Shown here: piece after piece, positions 9,629 through 64,000 of the stretch
Numbering within the stretch: position 1 is the stretch's first letter
Layout of the letters: each line of letters opens with the position of its first letter
Origin: an uncultured Chloroflexia bacterium
GTDB lineage: Bacteria; Chloroflexota; Limnocylindria; Limnocylindrales; CSP1-4
Direction: 5' to 3'
DNA length: 64,000 bases
Assembly (NCBI GenBank): GCA_963734535.1
Contig: CAVTHS010000011.1
Coordinates: 71,807-135,806, forward strand
Notes under the pieces: model-generated
What the model was told of the DNA's origin: nothing
Databases searched by the model: none
The model's input: only the letters and a program-made list of their open reading frames with translations
Position numbers and translations under genes: made by a program

Positions 9629-10397
9629 ATGAGCGACAACGTCTGCTACGTGGACGCGTACGTGCGGAGCGTCGAGGCGCGGCTGCGCGCCGTCGAGCCG
9701 CCCGCGGCGGAGGGCCGCGGAGCGATGGTGCTCCTGGACCGGACCGTCTTCTATCCCGGCGGCGGAGGCCAGCCGGCCGATCGCGGCGTGCTGCGGACGC
9801 CGGACGGGTCTCGAGTGGACCGTCGTGGCCGCGCGCAAGCAGGGCGACGAGATCTGGCACGAGCTGGAGCCCGGCCGGAGCCACCGGCACCCGGGCGGCC
9901 CGGGGGCTTCGGGCGGGACCGCGATCTTCACCGCCGACCTCGACTGGGAGCGCCGGCTCCGCCTGATGCGGACCCACACCGCGCTGCATGCGCTCTGCGG
10001 CGTGGTCTGGCGCGACTACGGGGCGCTCGTGACGGGCGGGAACATGGAGCCCGGCAGCGGTCGCATGGACTTCGAGTTCGAGCGGATGTCCGGCGAGCTC
10101 GTCGGCGCCATCGAGACCGCGGTCAACGAGGAGCTCCTCCGCGACCGGGACGTTCGGGTCAACGTGCTCCCGCGCGAGGAGGCCTTCGCGATCCCCGACC
10201 TGATCCGGACGAAGGTCAACCTCCTGCCGGCCGGGATCGAGCAGATCCGGACGATCGAGATCGTGGGTCTCGACCTCCAGGCGGACGGCGGAACGCACGT
10301 CGCGAACACCCGCGAGGTTGGCACGATCCACGTCACCGGCTACGAGTCGAAGGGGCGCATCAACAAGCGGATCCGGATGGAGCTCGTCGACCCGTAG
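9629..10397 (+). pseudogene. AlaX-like alanyl-tRNA editing protein (Thr/Ala-tRNA synthetase second additional domain), one +1 frame change near 9808
   Basis: The first segment MSDNVCYVDAYVRSVEARL ... VLLDRTVFYPGGGGQPADRGVLRTPDG is in frame 2. Frame 0 continues with LEWTVVAARKQGDEIWHEL ... RLMRTHTALHALCGVVW ... NMEPGSGRMDFEF ... IVGLDLQADGGTHVANTREVG. The HxxxH motif is present. The usual CxxxH reads ADGGTH here. Confidence 0.75.
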
Positions 10398-49940: not shown

Positions 49941-51344
49941 CTAGAAATCGGCGCTGGCGGGCGTGCGCGGGAACGGGATGACATCCCGGATGTTCGCCAT
50001 CCCCGTGGCATACGCGACCGCCCGATCGAACCCCAGCCCGAAGCCGGCATGCGGCACGGTGCCGTACCGGCGCAGGTCGCGGTACCACCAGTACGCCGCG
50101 GGATCAAGCCCCGTCTCGCGGATGCGTGCGTCGAGCACATCCAGGCGCTCCTCGCGCTGGCTTCCCCCGACGATCTCGCCGATCCCGGGGGCCAGCACGT
50201 CCATGGCCGCGACCGTGCGGCCGTCGTCGTTGCGGCGCATGTAGAACGCCTTGATCTCCTTCGGGTAGTTGACGACCACGACCGGGCGCTTCGCGAACTC
50301 CTCGCAGAGGTACCGCTCGTGCTCCGCCTGCAGGGCGACGCCCCACTCGACCGGGAACTCCCAGTCGCGGCCGGTCCGCTTGAGAACCTCGATCGCCTCC
50401 GTGTACTCCATGCGCGCAAAGCTCGACGTGACGAAGCCCTCCAGCCGGCTGACCGCTTCCTTGTCGATCCGGTCCGCGAAGAAGGCCATGTCGTCTGCGC
50501 GCTCGTCCAGGACCGCGCGGAAGCTGTAGCGAAGCAGGTCCTCGGCCAGGTCGGCGTTGTCGGAGATGTCGGCGAAGGCGATCTCCGGCTCGACCATCCA
50601 GAACTCGGAGAGATGGCGGCTGGTGTTCGAGTTCTCGGCCCGGAACGTGGGCCCGAAGGTGTAGACGTTCGTGAGCGCCAGGCAGTAGGACTCGATGTTG
50701 AGCTGGCCGGACACGGTCAGGAAGGCAGGCTTGCCGAAGAAGTCCTGGGAATAGTCGACCGCGCCCCCGGGCGTTCGCGGGAGGTTGGCGAGGTCGAGCG
50801 TCGAGACGCGGAACAGCTCTCCCGCCCCTTCGGCATCGCTGGCGGTCAGGATCGGCGTATGCACCCAGTAGAAGCCGTGCTCGTCGAAGTAGCGATGGAT
50901 CGCCATCGCGAGACAGTGCCGAACCCGGGCGACCGCCCCGAAGGTGTTCGTCCGCACCCGGAGGTGAGCGACCTCCCGGAGGTACTCGAAGGAGTGCCGC
51001 TTCGCCGAGATCGGGTACGTCTCCGGATCGTCCACCCACCCGACGACCACGACGGAGTCGGCGAGGAGCTCGACGGCCTGCCCCTGGCCCTGCGACGCCG
51101 CGACCGTGCCCGTGATGGTGACGGCGCATCCGGCGGTCAGATGCTGGATCTCGTCGTGGTAGTTGCCGAGCGCCGCCGGGGCGACGACCTGGAGGGCGTC
51201 GAAGCAGGACCCGTCGTGAACATGCAGGAACGAGAGCCCCGCCTTCGAGTCGCGACGGGTCCGGATCCAGCCCTGGACGGTCGCGCGAGCGCCGACCGCG
51301 GTCCGGCCCGCGAGGATGTCGACGACTCGTTCTGCCTTTGGCAT
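49941..51344 (-). CDS. asnS: asparagine--tRNA ligase
   Basis: AAGGAG is upstream of the [26 protein letters not shown] is the OB fold. Class II motifs are [26 protein letters not shown] and GFGLGFDR. Confidence 0.93.
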
Positions 51345-51525
51345 GCGGTTCTCCTTGCGGCCTCGAGGAGCACGCCGTGTCCGGCCGTGGTCCATGGAGA
51401 CACGTGGTGATGCCGTGACTCGCTCAGGATGAACCTTACCGAACGCGCCGTGCTGACACTCGAGGGCCGTGGGGATCGGCCGCGGCGCGAGGCCTCGATC
51501 GGTCGTCCAGGTCGGTCGGGGCGGC

Positions 51526-51581
51526 TTCTTGACCGATCCAGACGGGTCGGGTATGCTGGCCCCGTTCTTGATCGATCCAGA
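51526..51581. repeat. two 17-nt direct repeats (16/17 identical) in the asnS / small-ORF divergent region
   Basis: TTCTTGACCGATCCAGA at 51526-51542 and TTCTTGATCGATCCAGA at 51565-51581, 39 bp start to start. Confidence 0.85.
51529..51557 (+). promoter_or_regulatory. candidate sigma-70-type promoter
   Basis: TTGACC at 51529-51534, a 17-nt spacer, then TATGCT at 51552-51557. The second direct repeat would sit at about +1 to +20. Confidence 0.4.
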
Positions 51582-51619
51582 ATCATCCGCACGAGGTCGA
51601 GCGGGAACGGGAGTCACCG

Positions 51620-52912: not shown

Positions 52913-52992
52913 CGAATCCGCCCAAAAGCTTCGGTCGCCATCACCTGCAGCCTAGCCCGATCCGGTGCGGGCAGCCAGTCGGCATCGGCGGT

Positions 52993-55377
52993 CTACTCGC
53001 CCTCGCCCGCCTTCTTCCCCTGCTTCGGCGAATAGTGCTCATAGACGTGCCTGGTCATGGCGTTCGCGCCGGCGAAGATGACCCGGATCTGCTCGGCCAT
53101 CGCGGGCCAGCTGCCGGCCCACGTCTCGGGACTGCGGAGAATCTGGAGCGATTCGGTGCCGAGGGCGGCGACGAGGTCCGGGTGGCCGCCCATCTGCGGC
53201 GCCCGGGTATCGGCAACCTGGCTGCTGAGGCTTTCGAGGTCGCGCAGCCAGTACTTGGTGTACGAGGTGAGCTTCTGCTCGATCATCGCCTTCGTGGTCG
53301 GGTCGGTCGTCTCGCCGAGCAGCTTCGTGTCGGCGACGAAGTCCTTCGCCCCGAGCGACGCGGCATCCTGGCAGGTGCCGACATACGACCACGCGGCATT
53401 GTGGACATTCTGATCGTTGGCCCACTCGATCATCGCGGCCGCGCCGCGGAGGCCCTCGATCTCTGCGGCAACGATGATCTCGATGCCACCGACCATCGCC
53501 GCGCCGCCCGCACCTGTCGCCAGGCCAGCTGCAAGTCCGCCGAGCGTGCTGGCCGCCTCGCCTGCAGCCTCCGCGATCTTGCCCTGCGAGATCAGGTCGA
53601 CGATCCGGACCACGCTGATCACCACGGTGATCACGGTGGCGACCTTGCCGATCGTCTTCAGGGCGTCGGCGTACTTCGTCATCGACTTGGCGACCGTGCC
53701 CCACTCCTCGGCCGCCTTCTCGAGCCCGAGCAAAGCCAGCCGCTTCTCCTGGGCTTCGGCGAACCGCTTGATGATCTCGGTCGACAAGGAGAGGATTGCC
53801 CGGGCCATGCCGCTCGCCTTGTCCGCGATCTCGGCGATCGTGACGGCCTTGCCGAGCCGGCTTTGTTCCTTGTACTTCTCCAGCTTCTCCGCGATCTCGC
53901 CGGGCGCCTTGACCAGCTCGAAGATCTCGTGCCCGGTCTGCTCGAACTCCTCCTGGCTCAGGACTGCCGAGATCGCGTCCTCCTGGGCGAGCGTGAAGCC
54001 CTTGGCCGCGAGCTTCTCGGCCTCGTTGAGCTCCCTGGCCGCCTCCTTGAAGGCTTCGACCTGGCGAACCTGGTCGGGCGCCTCGAGCTTCGTCTCCTTG
54101 ACTGCGACGCCGTGCGCCTCCGAGTAGACGCCGCCGGTGAAGAGGGTCCGGCCGATGCCATTCAACTTGCCCTGCAGCTCGGCGATGTCGTCCGTGAAGT
54201 GGAGGGTGGAGCGGTCATCCTGGTCGACGAGGAACTTCGACATCCGCCGGAGCGCGAGGCGCAGGTCGCCCTGGGTCGCCGTCCAGAGCGCCAGCGCGTC
54301 CGACGCCGACCCTGTTGAGTCGGTCCGCGTCAGGATGAACGCGGTGCGCATCTTCTCGAGCATCTCGCGGTGCTGTGGCGTGAGGTGCTGCCCGAACTGG
54401 ACGCCGCCCAGGTCGGCACGCTGCTTCTGGTTCGTCTCGGCGAGGTTCAGGGGGACGACCGCGTCCGTCTTGTCCACGCTCTGCTGCTCGAGGACGTAGA
54501 GAAGGCGGTTGATCCCGTTCAGGAGGTCGACGTAGTCGTCGGGCGTCTCCACCTGCGACGCGCCCCGGCGCGGCGCGTGGACGTGCATCTCGCCGATGGC
54601 CGACAGGTTGTTGGTGACGGTGGCCAGGAAGTCGGCCGAGACGCCGAGCTTCCTGGCGTGATCGACTGCCTCGCGCATCCGCCGGTCGAGCGAGGGCCAT
54701 GCGGCGATCGCCGCGCGCCGCGACTCCGCCGACCTCTCCTGGGCCTGGATCAGCGCCGCCTGGATCCGGTCGAGCAGGTTGCGGTGGACGGGGCTAAGGT
54801 CGGGGCCGAAATGCACGCTATCGAGGCGTCGGCCGCCATCATTCACCGCGGCGCCGGCCAGGTCCTCGAAGCCGTTCAGCAGGTCGACGATGTCGTTGCG
54901 ATCCTTCGCCTGGGTCTGCTGATGGCCCGCAGCGGCGGGCGCCCGCTGGACGCTGGCCGCCGGGGAGCTCGACCGTCTGCCGCGCGAGTCCCGGGCGACG
55001 GCGCGGCCCGGCCCGCCCGCCTGGGCCTGCGACCCGTCCTGACCCAGGGACCCGGCGGCCTGAGGCTCGAGGGGCGTGGCCGCTGCTTCGCGGCCGGCCG
55101 AACGCGCTTCCAGCATCGCGGCCGCGACCGCCCGATTGCCGGCGTCGCGCTGGAGGGCGAGCACATCGGTCTCGGATAGTCCGGCGGCATCAACCGATCC
55201 GCTCGCCCCGACCGCGCGTCCGTTCAGCAGGGCACGCGGGTCGGCGACCCGCGGCCGCGGCCGTCCGGCGCCGACGGCGGGATGGGCGCGCCGCGGCTGG
55301 GACCGCGCCCGCTCAGGCATGCACGGGTCGCGGCTTCCTGGTCCCCATCGCGGGATCCTCCACCCTTCGCCCGCCAC
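52993..55377 (-). CDS. large helical protein with an N-terminal LQRxAGNxAV leader-like motif and a C-terminal glycine-zipper hydrophobic hairpin; candidate secreted or membrane-active effector
   Basis: The intact 794-aa ORF may instead start at Met20, position 55320. The N-terminal motif is DVLALQRDAGNRAVAAAML. An internal duplicated module is present (DIVDLLNGFEDL ... VHFGPDLSPVHRNLLDRIQAALIQA versus DYVDLLNGINRL ... VQFGQHLTPQHREMLEKMRTAFILT). A Lys/Glu-rich coiled region follows. The C-terminal part is KVATVITVVISVVRIVDLISQGKIAEAAGEAASTLGGLAAGLATGAGGAAMVGGIEIIVAAEI. Confidence 0.75.
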   Translation of the reverse strand: MAGEGWRIPRWGPGSRDPCMPERARSQPRRAHPAVGAGRPRPRVADPRALLNGRAVGASGSVDAAGLSETDVLALQRDAGNRAVAAAMLEARSAGREAAATPLEPQAAGSLGQDGSQAQAGGPGRAVARDSRGRRSSSPAASVQRAPAAAGHQQTQAKDRNDIVDLLNGFEDLAGAAVNDGGRRLDSVHFGPDLSPVHRNLLDRIQAALIQAQERSAESRRAAIAAWPSLDRRMREAVDHARKLGVSADFLATVTNNLSAIGEMHVHAPRRGASQVETPDDYVDLLNGINRLLYVLEQQSVDKTDAVVPLNLAETNQKQRADLGGVQFGQHLTPQHREMLEKMRTAFILTRTDSTGSASDALALWTATQGDLRLALRRMSKFLVDQDDRSTLHFTDDIAELQGKLNGIGRTLFTGGVYSEAHGVAVKETKLEAPDQVRQVEAFKEAARELNEAEKLAAKGFTLAQEDAISAVLSQEEFEQTGHEIFELVKAPGEIAEKLEKYKEQSRLGKAVTIAEIADKASGMARAILSLSTEIIKRFAEAQEKRLALLGLEKAAEEWGTVAKSMTKYADALKTIGKVATVITVVISVVRIVDLISQGKIAEAAGEAASTLGGLAAGLATGAGGAAMVGGIEIIVAAEIEGLRGAAAMIEWANDQNVHNAAWSYVGTCQDAASLGAKDFVADTKLLGETTDPTTKAMIEQKLTSYTKYWLRDLESLSSQVADTRAPQMGGHPDLVAALGTESLQILRSPETWAGSWPAMAEQIRVIFAGANAMTRHVYEHYSPKQGKKAGEGE

Positions 55378-55511
55378 GGGGCAGATCGTCGCGGGCCGCC
55401 GTTCGGGCAGGCTTGTGTGCGCGTTCGGGCACGAGCGTTCCGGCCGGCGCGCCCGGGAGGCGCTCCGCTGCGCGTCTCAGCTGTCCCTCCGGGCAGAGGG
55501 AGGTCCGGAGC

Positions 55512-58500
55512 TCATTTGAACCTGAAGACCGCGACGTGGTCCGAACCGTCGGACAGCCTGAGGTCGAACTGGCGGCAGGTGCCCGCCCACGACTTGGACG
55601 TCTTCCAGGCATAGAGGTACTGGTTCACGGGGGCGCCCACGTAGACGAGGAAGTTGCGGGGGATCGGGATGAGCGCGGGGACGGTGTTCGTCGCGACGCC
55701 CGTCGGGCAGGCGACCGCGATCACGACCGGCGAACCGGCAGCGAGGATGCCCAGCCCGCGGTTGCCCCCGAGGGCGAACCGGATGGGGACGGCGGAGCCT
55801 GCCGTCGCGAGATTGAGCGTCGGCGGATCCTTGACCGGGATCAGGAAGCCGCTGAATGGCCACCGGATCGAGAGCGTCGCCTGCCCGTGAGCCGGCGCGT
55901 AGCCGACGTCCGAGGGGGCCAGGTTGACCGGCGCGGGTACGCCATTGAAGTACGCGTCGACGCTGTAGCTCCCGGCCGGGAGGCTTCCGAGCGTCGAGGC
56001 AGGGACGACGACCCGGCCGAGCGGGTCGGTCCTCCCGGTGACCACGCTGGTGACCCCCGTGTTCACCGCGCCGGTGCCCGTGAAGATGACGAAGACGGAC
56101 CGCTGGGCGAGGGCGGCCGGAGGCGTGCCGGCGTTCAGGGTCGCGACGACGGAGAGCGCGCCGCCGAACGCCTGGCTTCCGAGCGTGCCGGACAGGGCCA
56201 GGCTCGTGGGTTGCGCCGTGACGGACACGCTGGCCGTCGCGCCCGACGGCGCATCGGCGCCATCCCCGGCAAAGCTGGCCGTGACCTGGTACGAACCCGG
56301 AGTGAGCGAGGCCAGGAGCGTCACGCTCGCCGTGCCGTTGGCGTCGGTGATCGCCGGCATCAGGGCGGACCCGATCCCGATCCGGACGAGCTTGCCGGCG
56401 AGCGGGTTCCCGCCCGCGGAGAGGCTGGCCGTGACCGTGACGCTGCTGCCGTAGGCGACGCTCGTGGGCGGCCCGGAAGGGAACCCGGTCACCGTGGCTG
56501 CAGGCGTCGTGGTCGTGCCCGTCGGAGCGCCCGGGATCGACCCGGGATGGTAGTAGGCACCGACGTTCGCGTCGAGCGTGACGCGGCCGTCGCCGTTCGC
56601 CGCCTGCACCATGAAGGCCACGCTGCCCGGGTCGGCGCCGGTCGGCAGCTGGGCGGTGCCGGTCCAGAGCGACGGATCGACTGCGTCCTGGGTCAGGTCG
56701 ACGGAATGCCACGTGCCCTGCTGGCCGATCACCGGTGGGATCGTCCACGTCGCCCAGACGGCCTGGATCCCCGCGGTCGGGTCACCGATGGCGCGTGCCT
56801 TGAACGTGAGCACGCCCGTCCCGGCGTCGAAGCTCGTATCGACCCCGGTGATCGTCGGTGGGGAGGCAAGCGCCGCCGCGCTGAGGTCGTTGCTGTAGAA
56901 GAGCCGGAAGTCCATGTTCGAGAACTGGCGGCGCGTGCTCGTGAGGGGGTTGGTGTCCGAGACGTGCTGGACGGGCGTGACCTGCAGGCGCGTGACCCCC
57001 GCGCCGCCGATCGCGTCGAACGAGTTGACCGACCACGGCTCGACCGGGAAGAGCACGTCCGTGAAGAACGGCGCGTGGATGCCGCGCAGTTCCGTGGCGG
57101 GAGCGGCCGTGAGCGGGGTCACGCCGCTCGTCTCCGTGTAGGTGCCCCCGCGAAAGCCGGCGCCGCGCAGGAGATAGCCGGCGCTCGGCGAGGTGACGTT
57201 GGCGCTCACGAGGGGAAGGATCGGCTGCATCGGGCGCAGCACGACGCTGCCGTCGGGTGGGGCCAGGTAGGTGGCGATCGGACCCGCCGTGAGGTCGGGG
57301 TTCGTGAGCTGGAGGCTGTTGGACGCAAGCGCCGCCGTGACGCTGGTGTCGGCCGTGGCGAGACCCAGCGCGCTGCCGGGAGTCCCGGTCGCGACCGGAG
57401 CGATCGAGGCGATGGTGCTCGAATCGGGCGCCTGGTAGATCCGCCCCTGCGGCAGGTTGACGCCGAGCATGGGCAGCCCGAAGAGCGTCGACTCGAGGAG
57501 CGCCTTCTCGTCGAGCGCGGTCAGCGAGGGCGTGGTCGCCAGGTAGACGCGCTTGGAGCGAACCAGCGCATCGCCGACCGCGACCGGGGTCGGCTGACCC
57601 TGCGGGTCGGTGGTCACCAGGAGCTGCCGCGAGAACTCGGCGTAGATCCGCTCGCTGTAGGCGAGGAAGTCGGTGTCGCCGTACTGGTAGCCAGTCCCGG
57701 CGATGAGCGTCGCCTTCCTGCCCGCGAATGCCTGCGCCCAGTCCATCGGCTGGGTCACGTTGGGGATCGCGTCGCGGTTGACGATGTTGTAGCCGGAATG
57801 GCAGCCGGCGCTGAAGACGATCGCGTTCGTGAAGTCCGTGGCCGACGCACCGAGCTCGGTCGAGAGGACGTTCGTCGCGTAGTCGGCCGCCAGCGCGTCG
57901 TTGGCGCTGAAGTGCCCGGCCAGGAAGATGAGGTCGTGCCGCCCGGACTGCAGCAGGGCCCTGCGGAGGTCGGCGCCGGTCCACGAGTGGAGTCGGTCGG
58001 GGGTTCCGTTCACGGTCACCAGGCCGGGTGCCACGCCCTCGTTCGTGATCAGCGTCGCGTTCCCGGTGCCGCCGATGCCGGCTCGGAGGTTGGACGCGAC
58101 GGCGTCCGCGGCATCCTGGAGGAAGTCGTAGCCGGTCACGAGCGAGGTCGTCGGGGTCGCCACGACGCCGTTGGTCGAGCCCGTTGTAGGCATCGAGCAT
58201 GCCGCCGATCTCGGCGGGCGTCTCGATGAGCCGGCCGACCGCGAGGTCCGGCACGGGGAACTGCGCGCCCAGCACCGAGACCTGGTCCTTGGTCCCGTAG
58301 GCGTCCTGGTTGAGGACGTAGCCGAGCCGCAGGCTCGCCTGCGACGCGCTGGCGTCGAGCACGGGCGGGGTATACAGCGTCTCGTTGCCCAGGAGCGCGG
58401 GATCCGGGTAGCGGAAGAAGGGGATCACCCCGTCGCTGCCGACGACCACCACGTACCGGACGGGATTGTCGGCGCGGTAGGCGTCGACGATCCGCTTGAT

Positions 58501-60473
58501 GGCCGATGCGACAAGGTTCTTGGCGTACGGACAGCTGGCGTGCGCGTCGGCCTGGGAGTTGAGTGAGGCGACGGTCGCGTCGGCGCTCACGTCGACGATC
58601 GCGCCGTTGACCTTCGCGCTGAACGTGGCCAGCTTGCCGGCGAGCGTGGCATCGATCGTCATCCGGTGGCTGTCCGTGAGGATGACCGTGCCGACGCTGC
58701 CCGCCGGCGCGACGGGGCTGCTGGCCTGGTCAGAGACGCCGACGCAGGGGCTGCCCTCGCGCGTGACCGCCAGCGAGAACGCATGGGATGGATCGAACGC
58801 GCCGTTCTTGCCCTGGACGCGGACATACACGAAGCCCGTGTTGTTCCAGGTGTTGACGGAGACGCTCTCAGACGGCCAGCCCCGTCCCGGCCGAGACCGC
58901 GAGCAGGCTCGCGGTCTGGGCGCTCGTGAAGATCTTCGGGTCGTTCGGGAACGAGCCGCTCCATTGCGAGGGGCTCCACTGCGAGGGTGACCACTGCGAG
59001 GGCGACCACTGCGACGGGCTCCACTGGGACGGACTCCACTGCGACGGCGACCACTGGGAGGGCGACCACTGCGACGGTGCCCACTGCGAGGCGCTCCACT
59101 GCGACGGCGCACCACTGCGACGGGCTCCACTGGGACGGGCTGAAGCCGGCCGTGTTCAGGGTCGGGTTCCAGTTGGTGGGATCCCACGCCGAGGGGTTGT
59201 ACTGCGACGTGTTGAAGGCATCGCCGGGCGCGCTGGCGTCCTGCTTGGCGAGGTCCGTCAGCGCCAGCGATGGGCCGGTCGTGGAGGTCGCGCCGGCGGT
59301 CAACGCGTCGTAGGCGGCCCCGATGTCGCTGAAGACGATGAGGTCGTAGTCGGCGGGCAGCTGGGACAGCGTGATGTCGACGCGCCCGTTGGGCAGGATC
59401 GGCACCTTGAACCAGCGCGCCTCGCCCTGGTTCTGGAGGTAGCCGGACGCCGGTCGCCTGGCCGTTCGTGTCGAGCGAAAGCGGTGTCGCGGTCGGCCAG
59501 GAGGTGTTGTTCGGCTCGACGCGGACGCAGTTCGAGAACGCCGATGGAGAGCCGCCCGGGACGTTCGCCTGCGCGCGGACATAGGTGCCCTCGACGAGCG
59601 TCGGGAAGTCCAGGGCGAACGCCGCGATCCCGTTCGAATTCGTGGTGATCAAGCTCGGGGTCGGGTTGAGCAGTGCCGGTTCCGGGTCGCCGCAGGTGGC
59701 GCTCGTGTAGAAGGTCAGCTGGTAGGCCGTCCCGGCCGGGACGCTGTCCTTCACAAGGCCGGCGATGCCGCCGTTCGGGACGGCGCCGAAGAGGACCGGC
59801 GCTGGCGCCTGGGTCGCCGGTGTCACCGACACGTTGTCGAGGGCGATCCCGTATGGAGCTGCTGGCCGCGTCCGTCGACACGAACGCCAGACGCGAGGTC
59901 GTCCCGGTCGCCACGACCGTCACCTGGCCGTGCGTCCACCCCATGGTGGTCGACGAGGATCCAGAGGTGTGGTCGACATGAAGCGGCGTCGACGCTCCCC
60001 ACTCGACATCCATTCCGGCTGGTCCATCGGCGCTGGGACGCTCGAAGTTGGCGGTATAGTCAAAGGAGACGAGGTACGCTTGTCCGGGGATCGTCGTGAA
60101 GACCTGGGAGATTGTCCCCGCGATCCTCTCGTTCGCGTCCGGACGCGCTGCCGTCGAGGTCGATCGACTGGGAACCCTCCGATGGCGACCAGTACCCCTT
60201 GATGAGGTCGACCGAGCCGCTGTCGAGCGACCACCCCGTGATGCCGGGCGCCGGAGAAACGAAGGTGTCGAACGTCGAAGCGTTGACGACGGGCGGCAGC
60301 TCGAAGCCACCGTTCGTGACGAGGTTGCTCAGGGTCGGCGCGAGGCTCGTGAAGACCGAGCTACCGGTCGCGACGGAGACCGATGCGACGCCAGGGAGGC
60401 CGCTGACCGCGAGCGCAACCGCGGCTGCCAGGCCAGGCCAACGCGACGAACGCGTGCGCGAGTGCCCCCTCAC
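55512..60473 (-). pseudogene. secreted multidomain protein of about 1650 aa (signal peptide, DUF642-like, PPC-like, SPSQW repeats, clan-CD-like His/Cys module, Ig-like repeats, PxKF-like C-terminus), six +1 frame changes as assembled
   Basis: The GTG at 60473 opens VRGHSRTRSSRWPGLAAAVALAVSGLPGVASVSVA.
- DUF642-like: NGGFELPP ... ITGWSL ... GSVDLIKGYW ... QSIDLDGS ... ISQVFTTIPGQAYLVSFDY ... YGIALDNVSV.
- PPC-like: GEARWFKVPILPNGRVDITLSQLPADYDLIVFSD.
- (SPSQW)12 repeats.
- His/Cys module: DLIFLAGHFSAN and IVFSAGCHSGYN, about 40 aa apart.
- Ig-like: TVTASLSAGGNPLAGKLV ... YQVTASFAGD.
- C-terminus: LNLATAGSAVPIRFAL ... YLYAWKTSKSWAGTCRQFDLRLSDGSDHVAVFRFK.
The frame changes are near 60145, 59854, 59450, 59111, 58880 and 58180. 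Confidence 0.75.
58961..59141. repeat. 15-bp imperfect tandem repeat x12 encoding (S/A)(P/A)SQW on the minus strand
   Basis: The plus-strand units read CCACTGCGAGGGCGA-like. One unit (59096-59111) is 16 bp long, and that is where the reading frame changes. Confidence 0.9.
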
Positions 60474-60630
60474 CGGATCCCCCCTGATCTCGAGGCCGAT
60501 GCCTCGTCCCACTCGGTCGCGGCGACCAGCGTCCCGGAACCACCCCCCGGAACTCGGCACAGTACGCAGATTCGCAACGCGCGGCAATACCCAAATCGCA
60601 GTGGCCGCGGGCGCGTCTCAGCCGCACGTC

Positions 60631-63600
60631 TCAGAGGAAGGCGAGCGCCTCCTCGATCGCGGCCTCGAGCCCGAGCCGCCGCCCCGCGGCCCACGGCTCG
60701 GCCGCGTCCGGGCCGAGCGCGTCGCGCGATGCACGCAGCTGGCCGTCGAGCTCCTGCTGGTCGGCCGGACCGCGCGGCGCCCCGATCTCGTCGCGGACAG
60801 CCGCGCCGGCCCCCGCCAGTCGCAGGGCAACCTCATGCTGCTCGAGCAGCGTCGCGAGCACCGCGACGTCCTCCAGCATGAACGCCAGCGCCCACTTGTC
60901 TCCGTGCTCGCGGTAGGTCAGCAGCGCTCGCCGGAACAGGTTCCGCGTCGCCCTGTAGTCGCGTTGGGAGCGTGTCAGGAGGCCGAGGTTGTGCTCGCCG
61001 AGCGCGATCATCCACGGATCTCCCGTCTCGCGGCGCAGGCGCAGGCTCTCCTCCTGGCAGTCGCGCGCTTCGCTCACGTTCCCTTTCAACAGGAGCACGT
61101 TGCCCAGGTTCATCAGCGAGATCGCGATCGCGCCCTTGTCGCCGGCCTCGACCCGGAGGCCAAGGCCCTCCTCGTGGAGCGCCCACGATCGGTCGTAGTC
61201 CCCGTCGTATTCGGCCATGATCCCGAGGTTGGAGAGGAGCGCCCCCATGGCTGCCTTGTCCCCGAGCTCGCGACGGATCTCGAGGCTCGCCTCGAGGAGC
61301 GAGCGGGCCGTCACGAAGTCGCCGCGCGTCGCCGCCACCGTCCCCTGGACCTGGGTCACGCGGCCCAGGCCGACGCGGTCGCCGAGCAGCTCGAAGCGCT
61401 CGCGAGCCGCGGTCAGCCAGCTCGACGCCTCGTCGTATTCGCCGCGCTTCCGGGCAAGGTCGGCCAGCGCGACGTCAGTCCAGGCAGTCGCCGACGGGTC
61501 CGCCGTGCCGTCCGCAAGCGCGAGCGCGTCCCGGTACGCGCGGCCGGCTCCGGGCCAGTCACCGGCCACCTCCAGCGCCTCGCCGAGGCGGCGCGTGACC
61601 TCCCAGCGGTCCACGCCTTCGAGGAGGGGCGCTGCGCGCTCGAAGTAGCTGATCGCGGCGGCATTCGCGTACGTCGCCTGGGCCGCCTTCCCGGCCCTCA
61701 CCAGGTACTCGCGCTTCTTGGCCGGGTTGTCGCCGTGCCAGTAGTGGTGGGCCAGCAGGTCCAGGTTCCGGTCGATCGCCTCGGGCTCGCTCTCCTCCAC
61801 GTGCCTGCCCACTCGTCCGTGGAGCGACGCCCGGATCTCGAACGGGAGGCTCTCATAGGCGACCTCCTGGGTGACGACGTGCTTGAACAGGTACGAGTCG
61901 TCGGCCTCGACGTCGAGGTGGACCAGCTCGGCCTCGCGCAGGCGCACCAGGTGGTCGCGCACGTCCGCAAGATCACCGAGCTCGGGGTGGACGCTCGGCA
62001 GCCACGCGGCGCGGAACAGGCGCCCGATCACGCTCGCGACCTTGAGCGTCCGGCGCGGAGACTCCGCGAGCGCGTCGATGCGGCTCAGGATCAGGCTCTG
62101 GAGGCTGTCCGGCAGCTCGAGCGCGCCGAGCGCGACCGTGTCGCTCGGATCGATCCCCTGGGCCCGGATGTAGGTCAGCAGCTCCTCGACGTAGAACGGG
62201 TTGCCCTGCGAACGGGCCGTCACGAGCTCCACGAGCGAGTCGGCGGCATCGACGCTGCCCCCGGACTCCTGCTCGAGCTTGGCGCGGATGAGCAGCGCAG
62301 CGTCGGCGCGGTCGAGCTCCGAGAGGGCGATCTCGGAGAAGCCGGCGAGTCGCTCGATCCCGAGCGTGGCGCCGGGCAACGTGGCCGGGCGCATGGCTAC
62401 GACGAGGAGCACGTGGAGCGTGGGGCAGGCGCGGGCGAGCGCCACGAGCAGGTCCCGGGAGAGCGGGTCGAGCCAGTGGCAATCCTCGAGGACGAGCACG
62501 AGCGGGTGGCGAGCGGCTCGAGCCTGGAGGCAGGCCACGAGCAGGCTCTCGAGCGACGCCTTGCGGACCTTCGCGTCGAAGGGCCGCGTGAGATCGTTAT
62601 CGGGGATCTCGATGTCGAGGACCACGTCGAGGAGGGGCGCCCTCGCCACGAGGGATGGGTCGATCGAGGCCAGCTCCAGCTCCAGCTCGCGGACACGTTC
62701 GGTTGGCGGCTTCTCGAGGTGGACGTGCAGCAGCCGACGCCACACCTCCCGCCATGGGAAGTAGCTGGTGTTCGCCCCGTAGGCCTGACATTCCCCGGTG
62801 GCAACCATCACGCCGCCCCGGCGCGCATCACGGACCAGCTCCGCGACGAGGCGCGACTTGCCGAGCCCGGCCTCGGCGGTGATCGCGATGATGCGCCCGG
62901 TTCCCGCCGCCGCCTCGTCGAGCCGCGCACGGAGCGCCTCGACCTCCGAAGCGCGACCGAACATGGGGAGGCGGTACCGCGTGCGACGCGTCCTCCCCTC
63001 GCGAGCCCCCGTGAGCGAGAACGCCGTGACGGGCGCGGACTTGCCCTTCACGGACAGCGGTCCCAACGGCTCCCATGAGAACGCCTCGCCGGCCGCGTTC
63101 CGGACCGCCTCGGAGGCGTAGACGCGGCCGGCCGGCGCCGCCGACATCAGGCGGGCCGCCAGGTTGACGGCGTCGCCGAGGCACACGAACGTGCGCCGCA
63201 TCGAATGGCCGTACGTGCCGCTCCGGAGCTGGCCGTGGGCGATCCCCACCTGGATCCCGGTCACAGCCGTGGCGCCCTCCAGGTCGAGGAGCGCAAGTGC
63301 CGCGGCGGCGGCCCGGGCGGCGTCGTCCTCGTGCGCGATCGGCGAGCCGAAGACGCCGTAGAGGTAGGCGCCCTTGTCCCCGAGCGTGAGCTGGAGGGCC
63401 GTGCCTCCGAACCCCCGCAGGATCCGCTGGGCGCCGCTCACGAACGCGTCGAGCTTCGCGATCGCCTCGTCATCGGCGTCATAGTCGATGCCCCCGAACC
63501 GCAGGAACAGCGGAAACGCCGCCCGCAGCTCGGCGAGGAGCTCGCCGTGACCCGCCCGCAGGCGCTCGTAGACCGCCGGAAGGATCCAGGGACGAACCTG

Positions 63601-64000
63601 CTCATCGTCGAGGCTCTCGACCATCGCGGATGCCGGGACTGCCTCGACCTCCACGCTGAGATGGCTCACGACCGCGATGGTGCGGCCCGTTGCCTCGTCC
63701 TGCCGTTCGGCGGCGATCTCGGCGCGGGCGCCGAGCGAGGCGCGCGCCGCCGGATCGAGCACGACCTCGCCCGGTTGGGCATGCTCCTCGGCCTGGGCAA
63801 GGTCGTCGATAAGCCGACCCGCGAGCACCTCGATGAGCTGGATCTCCGGATCGCCCACCAGGAAGCGTCGCGCCGGCCCGACGGCGACGGCCACCTTCAT
63901 CGCCAGGCGGATGCTGGCGCCGGACGGCGTCACGATCTCGCCGACTCGGTCGAGGGCGCGGTGCATGGCGAACCCGGCAGCAACAGCGCGGACGCCGTCG
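60631..64000 (-). CDS. tandem class III adenylate/guanylate cyclase domains, AAA/P-loop NTPase, TPR repeats; 5' end lies beyond the window
   Basis: The frame is open from 64000: ...GVRAVAAGFAMHRALDRV ... MKVAVAVGPARRFLVGDP is cyclase-like domain 1. FLRFGGIDYD ... GGTALQLTLGDKGAYLYGVFG ... RTFVCLGDAVNLAARLMS ... VKGKSAPV is cyclase domain 2. FGRASEVEALRARL ... ITAEAGLGKSRLVAEL ... LVLEDCHWLD is the P-loop/Walker B region. More than 8 TPR-like repeats run to the stop at 60631. Confidence 0.85.
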   Translation of the reverse strand, partial: DGVRAVAAGFAMHRALDRVGEIVTPSGASIRLAMKVAVAVGPARRFLVGDPEIQLIEVLAGRLIDDLAQAEEHAQPGEVVLDPAARASLGARAEIAAERQDEATGRTIAVVSHLSVEVEAVPASAMVESLDDEQVRPWILPAVYERLRAGHGELLAELRAAFPLFLRFGGIDYDADDEAIAKLDAFVSGAQRILRGFGGTALQLTLGDKGAYLYGVFGSPIAHEDDAARAAAAALALLDLEGATAVTGIQVGIAHGQLRSGTYGHSMRRTFVCLGDAVNLAARLMSAAPAGRVYASEAVRNAAGEAFSWEPLGPLSVKGKSAPVTAFSLTGAREGRTRRTRYRLPMFGRASEVEALRARLDEAAAGTGRIIAITAEAGLGKSRLVAELVRDARRGGVMVATGECQAYGANTSYFPWREVWRRLLHVHLEKPPTERVRELELELASIDPSLVARAPLLDVVLDIEIPDNDLTRPFDAKVRKASLESLLVACLQARAARHPLVLVLEDCHWLDPLSRDLLVALARACPTLHVLLVVAMRPATLPGATLGIERLAGFSEIALSELDRADAALLIRAKLEQESGGSVDAADSLVELVTARSQGNPFYVEELLTYIRAQGIDPSDTVALGALELPDSLQSLILSRIDALAESPRRTLKVASVIGRLFRAAWLPSVHPELGDLADVRDHLVRLREAELVHLDVEADDSYLFKHVVTQEVAYESLPFEIRASLHGRVGRHVEESEPEAIDRNLDLLAHHYWHGDNPAKKREYLVRAGKAAQATYANAAAISYFERAAPLLEGVDRWEVTRRLGEALEVAGDWPGAGRAYRDALALADGTADPSATAWTDVALADLARKRGEYDEASSWLTAARERFELLGDRVGLGRVTQVQGTVAATRGDFVTARSLLEASLEIRRELGDKAAMGALLSNLGIMAEYDGDYDRSWALHEEGLGLRVEAGDKGAIAISLMNLGNVLLLKGNVSEARDCQEESLRLRRETGDPWMIALGEHNLGLLTRSQRDYRATRNLFRRALLTYREHGDKWALAFMLEDVAVLATLLEQHEVALRLAGAGAAVRDEIGAPRGPADQQELDGQLRASRDALGPDAAEPWAAGRRLGLEAAIEEALAFL

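Follow-up and report, generated by a model that had tools for sequence, protein, structure and literature searches.

The window analysed here is a stretch of 64,000 nucleotides (64 kb) from an uncultured Chloroflexia bacterium (assembly GCA_963734535.1, contig CAVTHS010000011.1), and the gene under study lies on its minus strand at 52993..55377. The encoded protein carries near its N-terminus a motif of the LQRxAGNxAV type, which an earlier note on this DNA had described as preceding the DUF4157 (eCIS_core) domain of proteins linked to contractile injection systems (CISs), of which the extracellular ones are termed eCISs. No such domain follows the motif here, and the question raised by the locus is whether the protein nevertheless belongs among the cargos of these machines and, if so, what it would deliver. 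Our reading, to which we assign a probability of roughly one half, is that it is a cargo-type protein built of modules, one of the wider set of CIS effectors, with its gene located apart from the machine, and that in it an N-terminal recognition or adaptor half is joined to a C-terminal membrane-targeting payload. Throughout the text, residue numbers count from the GTG at 55377, with which a mechanically defined open reading frame (ORF) of 794 aa begins; M20 is the likely true start.

The N-terminal half and its relatives

A search of 1.84e9 representative proteins with the family profile (hmmsearch) retrieved 129 relatives, which were found to display three architectures. Class 1 comprises the full-length relatives. 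Class 2 proteins (470-690 aa) consist of the leader, one copy only of a module that is duplicated in the window protein, and the same C-terminal domain, and most of them carry an LQRxAGNxAV-type motif. Class 3 is composed of long proteins (800-2071 aa) that are common only over profile positions ~40-390, namely the leader/junction and the duplicated module, the rest of their sequence being entirely different. Judged by this comparison, the parts of the protein appear to be independent modules.

Five of the relatives (P0050, P0051, P0055, P0057 and P0062) match profile positions ~40-390 with E-values of 1e-64 to 1e-79, and all five bear PF13699 (eCIS_core, DUF4157; E 1e-25 to 1e-32) immediately upstream of the module. 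A 'VQRAP' junction joins DUF4157 to the module, as seen in P0050 and P0051, and these two proteins end in toxin domains, PT-HINT/Hint in the former and an EndoU nuclease in the latter; P0050, in addition, adjoins a DUF6519 giant protein. Moreover, in locus L011, from a Thermoleophilia metagenome-assembled genome (MAG), an ORF of 2776 aa begins '...LAGLQRSAGNRATANLLRVQRAPA', continues into the module (tblastn, 7e-34) and carries 'LQRSAGNRA...VQRAPA'. The genes of this locus are arranged in the order GerE regulator, Pvc16_N terminator (1e-41), WHD-AAA ATPase, the 2776-aa ORF, phage sheath and gp19 tube. The combination of an AAA+ ATPase with a Pvc16_N terminator is the signature that separates eCIS regions from phage tails (PMC10020575), and giant ORFs of such clusters that combine hydrophobic segments with disorder and coiled coil correspond to the Tme-like proteins of Nagakubo et al. 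(PMC11126660). The proteins to whose N-terminal part the N-terminal half of the window protein is homologous, through the module, are thus tied to CISs on two separate grounds, some bearing DUF4157 and another being embedded in a CIS cluster. The protein itself shows neither PF13699 nor HExxH: as the earlier note had observed, nothing of the kind stands behind the motif, hmmscan against Pfam-A (to E 1) gave no PF13699 match, and no NCBIfam domain was found. The earlier note's proposal that a motif-bearing protein could be tied to contractile-injection-type effectors despite lacking DUF4157 has gained support, which comes from homology of the module more than from the motif.

The association between motif and domain was evaluated in the best 120 of 2208 DUF4157 matches, a biased and fragment-rich sample in which 77 proteins have at least 20 residues upstream of the domain. 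An [LIVMF]Q[RK] element was detected upstream of DUF4157 in 39/77 against 5.1 expected from shuffles, at a nearly fixed position ~28 residues before the domain, while 'LQR.A.N' was present in 7/77 and 'LQR..GN' in 2/77 (0.05 expected in either case); in P0051 the region upstream of the domain reads 'LLQRKCTCGNHAVAGG'. An LQR-type element thus genuinely belongs to the sequence that precedes DUF4157, and to this extent the earlier note was right. The strict AGNxAV form, however, was found in 1/77, and this version appears from the alignments to be characteristic of the present family and a minority elsewhere in the DUF4157 sample. Overall, the window protein reads like a DUF4157-deleted arrangement, in which an LQR element is followed by a linker replacing the domain, by QRAP and by the module.

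In the window protein, the motif LALQRDAGNRAV spans L73-V84 (nt 55126-55161), is the sole such motif in the six-frame translation of the window, and lies in a predicted helix. Within the family, its Q76, G80 and N81 reach a conservation of 90% or more. Among the 150 relatives listed, about 60 have the motif within the first ~110 residues (one, P0019, has it at 152), and most of those without an N-terminal motif are fragments or DUF4157-type proteins. On both sides of the motif helix the full-length model is disordered, with a predicted local distance difference test (pLDDT) score of about 30 across residues 1-68 and 96-153, in agreement with the low-complexity spacer noted earlier. The second of these stretches ends in the QRAPAA junction (residues 144-149, nt 54931-54948). 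The N-terminal region is also hydrophilic (Kyte-Doolittle, KD, sum of -31.8 over the first 50 aa) and slightly positive (charge +4 over aa 6-21), as expected of CIS cargo, and no Sec/Tat-type hydrophobic core was visible in the leader on inspection by eye, no predictor having been run. The eCIS signals described so far combine hydrophilicity and disorder with a slight positive charge (PMC11297309), and in AlgoCIS the disordered N-terminal domain upstream of DUF4157 is needed for cargo loading while DUF4157 is dispensable (bioRxiv 10.64898/2026.05.27.728243). As the leader matches the described signal properties, and in view of the AlgoCIS result, it is plausible that it could work as a loading signal.

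The ~110-aa module suspected of being duplicated is indeed so: the two copies match each other by BLASTP (E=1e-9, 30% identity over 108 aa), and a trace of the duplication is left in the DNA as repeat D1 (54515-54555 and 54872-54912, 357 nt apart). The first copy has invariant columns in the family alignment.

The C-terminal domain and its hydrophobic hairpin

From sequence and structure model alike, the C-terminal 370 aa form a separate conserved domain. Residues 425-794 modelled alone, with a 52-sequence alignment, are confidently predicted to be all-helical (pLDDT 84.7; predicted template modelling score, pTM, 0.79), and their sole uncertain stretch is the Gly-rich segment 621-643. The Lys/Glu-rich coiled region with which the domain opens was confirmed at residues 431-570, where K amounts to 10% and E to 16%, as compared to 0% K in residues 20-153. 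The two adjacent hydrophobic helices with GxxxG-type spacing were likewise recovered: hydropathy averaged over 19 residues (KD19) peaks at 2.21 (579-597) and 1.60 (619-637), G614/G618/G622 form a GxxxGxxxG run in the second helix, and nine small-xxx-small-xxx-small matches occur in 606-650. Across the 52 class-1 and class-2 proteins, hydrophobicity of the hairpin is conserved, being at least 1.6 in 46 for arm 2 and in 33 for arm 1, and the AE.E(A/G)(I/L)..AA..I motif after the hairpin is nearly invariant. The tail is found in all class-1 and class-2 relatives, with a length of about 145 aa instead of the ~190 aa first estimated; with this correction, every protein feature listed in the earlier note is present. 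The hairpin domain is a candidate new membrane-active module.

Foldseek searches of the domain against PDB and BFVD (best E 0.2-0.4, template modelling score (TM) <=0.24) and of the full-length model gave no significant match, and hhalign found the domain unrelated to the middle region of the Tme-like class-3 proteins (probability 0.1%). A scan of PHROG returned a weak match to tape-measure family 167 (E=3.8e-5, 22.6 bits, residues ~418-654), which we treat as a hint at most because the region is compositionally biased and the class-2 relative P0045 gives no such match.

Two other proteins carry related C-terminal regions. In P0083 (818 aa) the hairpin domain stands behind an unrelated ~380-aa N-terminal domain, and its gene belongs to what looks like an operon (L017 4887-14069), where three unannotated proteins precede one of 837 aa with a VanY domain; this may represent a different delivery context. 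P0140 (1003 aa) has the LQR-like leader 'VTEWQRAAGNTAVV', an unrelated middle of ~600 aa and, in divergent form, the C-terminal hairpin region, an architecture that adds to the evidence for leader/payload recombination.

The gene, its start and its selection

The ORF is a real, functional gene. Its GC3 (G+C content at third codon positions, stop-to-stop) is 0.90 in a window of ~70% GC, and comparison with the closest relatives, L018 and L012 (84-87% amino-acid identity), gave a ratio of nonsynonymous to synonymous substitution rates (dN/dS) of 0.28-0.39 for the whole gene and of 0.10-0.31 for its structured parts, with the minimum, 0.10-0.14, in the hairpin region; leader and linker are near-neutral (about 0.8-1.1). 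An artefactual ORF was rejected on these grounds, and the frame is intact, as had been noted. A reading of 52993-55377 on the plus strand was also discarded, as it contains many stops and yields no protein. Since homologues begin 'MPE[RQL]A', the likely start is the ATG at 55320 (M20), which gives a protein of 775 aa and has AGGAAG 13 nt upstream.

DNA similarity to the closest relative, in L018 (9908-12414), is 89.7% and confined to 52952-55457, which comprises the gene, ~80 nt before it and ~40 nt after it; beyond these limits both flanks are unrelated. The gene behaves as a single-gene accessory unit. Mobile-element termini, repeats, promoters and terminators were looked for around the homology block, and nothing convincing was found.

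Table 1. Features of the gene and its protein, and tRNA-synthetase-type genes at family loci.
Feature	Coordinates	Strand	Basis
Gene as supported by homologues, 775 aa + stop	52993..55320	-	homologue starts, GC3, dN/dS, L018 DNA homology
Disordered Arg/Pro/Ala/Gly-rich leader, residues 20-68, net charge +6	55174..55320	-	pLDDT about 30
Predicted helix 69-99 with motif LALQRDAGNRAV	55081..55173	-	alignment, motif scan, structure model
Disordered linker, residues 100-153, ending in conserved QRAPAA junction	54919..55080	-	alignment, pLDDT
Helical module copy 1, residues 154-270	54568..54918	-	D[IY]VDLLNGF...FG.DLS..HR.LL...W; pLDDT 85-94
Helical module copy 2, residues 271-430, ending in GGVYxEAH motif	54088..54567	-	BLASTP, alignment, model
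Lys/Glu-rich long helices, residues 431-570, opening part of the C-terminal domain	53668..54087	-	composition, domain model
Hydrophobic helix 579-597, helix 601-620, Gly/Ala-zipper segment 606-637, AAEIEGLxGAAAMI motif	53428..53667	-	KD19, model, alignment
Conserved helical tail, residues 651-794	52996..53427	-	W710, R712, GG(Q/H)P 730-733, F.GAN.M..YV..HY; pLDDT 88-98
tRNA-synthetase-type genes	window 49941-51617; window 9633-10397; L009 7772-9619; L010 7881-9522; L001 8970-9725

Proposed mode of action and alternative explanations

In the mechanism that we propose, the N-terminal half (disordered basic leader, LQRxAGNxAV helix, QRAP junction and two module copies) would be the delivery or adaptor part. 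The same N-terminal arrangement, with or without eCIS_core, fronts long polymorphic proteins, one of them in a CIS operon, and by analogy with the cargos of AlgoCIS and of the Photorhabdus virulence cassettes (PVC) it may be what guides the protein towards the AAA+ loader and the lumen of spike and tube. The C-terminal 370 residues would be the payload, whose soluble form is expected to bury the small-residue-zipper helical hairpin. Once the payload is released, its hairpin may enter a membrane and there cause anchoring, permeabilisation or depolarisation, with possible toxicity, as suggested by analogy with the tape-measure-like cargos Sle1 and Tme. A bolder version of this proposal is put forward tentatively: leader (LQRxAGNxAV helix and QRAP junction) and module would jointly make up a portable tag, defined by its sequence, through which proteins are recruited in trans to a distant CIS wherever in the genome they are encoded. 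We regard this version as possible rather than probable.

Several observations weigh against a CIS cargo with a membrane-active payload. No CIS, T7SS (type VII secretion system) or phage gene was detected in the 64-kb window, and none lies within 10 kb of any other full-length or class-2 relative; the injection or secretion genes that the earlier note had suggested looking for are missing from the window and from the surroundings of every full-length homologue. The gene is encoded neither in nor near a CIS operon, while known eCIS toxins almost always lie within about ten genes of theirs (PMC11297309), and P0066, a class-3 protein with an LQR leader, is likewise an orphan. When CIS proteins from L011 and DUF4157 domains served as tblastn queries against the window and 21 loci, matches were confined to L011. 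The small immunity-like partner that had been anticipated was not found either: when the ORFs of nine loci were compared all-against-all, only the gene itself was conserved. On the side of the protein, the strict form of the motif seldom precedes DUF4157 in the sample examined, there are Arg and Asp residues in the first hydrophobic helix, and many relatives have an arm 1 that is no more than amphipathic. Moreover, the C-terminal domain has no known sequence or fold relative in a PDB profile search and in Foldseek against PDB and BFVD, and the PHROG 167 match is weak.

One alternative is a cell-intrinsic role, in which the protein would be a membrane-associated helical protein that is not delivered (acting, e.g., in envelope stress or membrane remodelling) and descends from a CIS- or tape-measure-like cargo. 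Housekeeping neighbours (the PAP2 membrane phosphatase and the Asn/Asp-tRNA synthetase), purifying selection, the missing immunity gene and the small MarR/PadR regulators adjacent to the gene in three loci are all in agreement with such a role, and so is the finding that Streptomyces CISs are cytoplasmic and act on the producer (PMC10020575, PMC11126660). It is hard to explain, however, why a motif-bearing disordered leader and an adaptor module would be kept across divergent relatives without a recognition partner. In addition, the neighbourhood is wholly different even between copies at 87% identity, which suggests an accessory, mobile gene. On balance, we consider this explanation unlikely.

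Export by a route other than a CIS, either T7SS-like or an unknown monoderm pathway, seems to us somewhat less likely still. The protein would then be a polymorphic-toxin-like effector, and its leader and module a general pre-toxin scaffold that some CIS loci have recruited, which would suit the consistently orphan gene, the modular architecture with swapped C-termini and the majority of motif-bearing relatives that are without DUF4157. Yet neither LXG, WXG100 or another trafficking domain nor, by eye, a Sec/Tat-type signal was found, no secretion genes occur in the window, the sole machinery genes seen beside any relative are the CIS genes of L011, and the sole recognised domain fused upstream of the module is eCIS_core. 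A T7SS LXG toxin in particular was rejected, as there is no Pfam match to LXG or WXG100 and no T7SS gene in the window.

Finally, it is very improbable that the protein is not an effector but a structural part, of tape-measure type, belonging to a phage tail or a CIS, or else what is left of a prophage: the helical protein does have coiled-coil and hydrophobic segments, a weak PHROG 167 match and tape-measure proteins among its weak Foldseek viral matches, but these matches are not significant or not reproducible, no tail genes lie nearby, phage genes are missing (for which a prophage remnant was set aside) and no relative occurs in viral contigs. The CIS-embedded Tme-like relatives, moreover, are longer, and the C-terminal domain of the window protein is unrelated to their middle.

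Family distribution and genomic neighbours

The protein gave no match in Pfam, NCBIfam, PADLOC or a PDB sequence-profile search; a sub-threshold EXOC6/Sec15 match was set aside as such, and PADLOC was equally negative for one class-2 relative and for the downstream PAP2 neighbour. A word-indexed search of 5.8e9 proteins retrieved 25 relatives, none with a Pfam domain, and a motif-only profile search of the same database gave three matches among the few candidates collected. Relatives in reference genomes belong to uncultured soil Chloroflexia MAGs, with partial matches in one Chloroflexota and one Thermoleophilia MAG; a metagenome scan contributed four more loci, and a scan of viral contigs returned no relative. 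We know of no report of such systems in uncultured soil Chloroflexia hosts.

Two Chloroflexota proteins of 1329 and 1084 aa (L009 9713-13702 and L010 9779-13033) have the same leader and module, followed by a conserved hydrophobic/Gly-rich region, 'YDADLDxGYRRL...VQVALVxLVPxAGEAALA', and Pro-rich repeats; that of L009 ends in a C-terminal domain with no Pfam match. Both are encoded directly downstream of a methionyl-tRNA synthetase, and their flanks gave no match to the L011 CIS proteins. A Pfam scan of the giant proteins from L009, L010 and L011 detected no domains.

The window is ordinary chromosome, with pntAB transhydrogenase, araA, sugar ABC/catabolic genes, an EAL/PAS protein, a CNNM transporter, purine-catabolism-like amidohydrolases and an Asn/Asp-tRNA synthetase. 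A PAP2 membrane protein (phosphatase) is encoded just downstream of the gene, and a cyclase-AAA_16-TPR regulator upstream. On long contigs, the full-length and class-2 relatives are orphans with unrelated neighbours. Nevertheless, some kinds of gene recur. Aminoacyl-tRNA-synthetase-type genes (Asn/Asp-RS, Met-RS and AlaX-like tRNA_SAD) stand beside family members in several loci (Table 1), and tRNA_SAD and pntAB genes are common to the window and L001, which suggests remnants of synteny. Small MarR or PadR regulators lie directly beside the gene in L001 (12400-12924), L012 (9155-9589) and L013 (8536-9156), loci that are otherwise unrelated, and no such regulator is adjacent in the window. Furthermore, a very large AAA_16 regulator is encoded 3-10 kb from the gene in three loci (window 60631-63966, L001 2690-6091 and L002 1-4018), combined with cyclase and TPR in the window and with GerE in L001 and L002. 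GerE-type regulators are reported to control eCIS operons; the proximity may be a coincidence, such regulators being common in these genomes.

The upstream neighbour (55512-60500, minus strand) is a large secreted-type protein with a Big_3_5 Ig-like domain and, by eye, PPC-like and repeat regions. It had been described as heavily interrupted, and in a GC3 frame plot the frame with high GC3 changes at least five times from 60500 to 58240, within its 5' third; the 2.7 kb at its 3' end are intact. Either the gene is decaying into a pseudogene, or clustered indel errors, possibly from long-read assembly, are responsible.

Significance

The known kind to which the protein belongs is that of CIS cargos, or polymorphic effectors, with a swapped payload. 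What is new is a previously undescribed helical module, which stands behind DUF4157 or in its place, a well-defined motif in the leader, the consistent orphan location and the C-terminal domain with no sequence or fold relative. The discovery of CIS and eCIS cargos now leans on operon proximity or on DUF4157 as a marker, and the signals for loading are described as not conserved in sequence. A conserved and recognisable N-terminal module, found in DUF4157-bearing proteins, in a CIS-embedded giant and in orphan proteins, would give a genome-wide sequence handle for cargos, and might be of use, as a candidate loading tag, in the engineering of injection systems. Should the idea of a portable tag hold, it would define a class of orphan CIS cargos, represented here by one with a previously unseen membrane-inserting helical domain. 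It would also contradict the current view, in which no sequence is conserved among the loading signals of eCISs and cargos are encoded in the operon.

Comparison with known systems

Among systems with pore-forming or depolarising toxins, the colicin pore domains, the ClyA-family alpha-pore-forming toxins and Tse4/Ssp6 share with the window protein a concept only, that of a soluble helical bundle hiding a Gly/Ala-zipper hydrophobic hairpin. The profile and structure searches suggested in the earlier note (DUF4157, LXG, colicin-like and Tse4/Ssp6-like) all came back empty: no Pfam, PDB sequence or significant Foldseek match to these pore-formers was obtained, AhlB, HblL1, SmhB and MakA appearing at E 2.5-5 and TM about 0.1, and the domain-only Foldseek search gave nothing below E 0.38 (TM <=0.24). 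The ClyA-family and tape-measure entries among the weak Foldseek matches were not taken as evidence.

The eCIS toxins with DUF4157 (Geller 2021, PMC8213781; Danov 2024, PMC11297309; AlgoCIS Cgo1/Cgo2) are similar in their disordered basic N-terminus, their variable C-terminal payload and the LQR-type element upstream, and the QRAP junction and module are common to the window protein and to P0050, P0051, P0055, P0057 and P0062. It differs from these toxins in having no DUF4157/HExxH and in not being encoded in or beside a CIS operon.

Tme, from the CIS of Streptomyces davawensis (PMC11126660), is best compared with the class-3 relatives, and above all with the 2776-aa protein of L011, which fit the Tme-like description: largest ORF in the CIS cluster, hydrophobic Gly-rich segments, disordered Pro-rich regions and toxin ends. 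The window protein has its N-terminal module in common with these relatives and is likened to Tme itself by description. It does not show the Tme-like combination of largest CIS ORF, N-terminal DUF4157, transmembrane segments and tape-measure homology, being much shorter, an orphan, devoid of DUF4157 and nuclease, and different in its C-terminal domain from the class-3 middle.

Sle1 (SLIV_17115) from Streptomyces lividans is a CIS cargo that lacks DUF4157 and has a tape-measure-like coiled coil and a C-terminal globule with a predicted membrane hairpin (bioRxiv 10.1101/2025.11.06.686954). While Sle1 always has the sheath gene and a small DUF4157 protein as its neighbours, neither of which lies near the window gene, the two proteins are alike by description in being all-helical, in their long coiled-coil-like helices, in a faint tape-measure similarity, in the hairpin within the C-terminal globule and in having no DUF4157 of their own. 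By this analogy, Sle1 would be the closest functional precedent for the protein described here.

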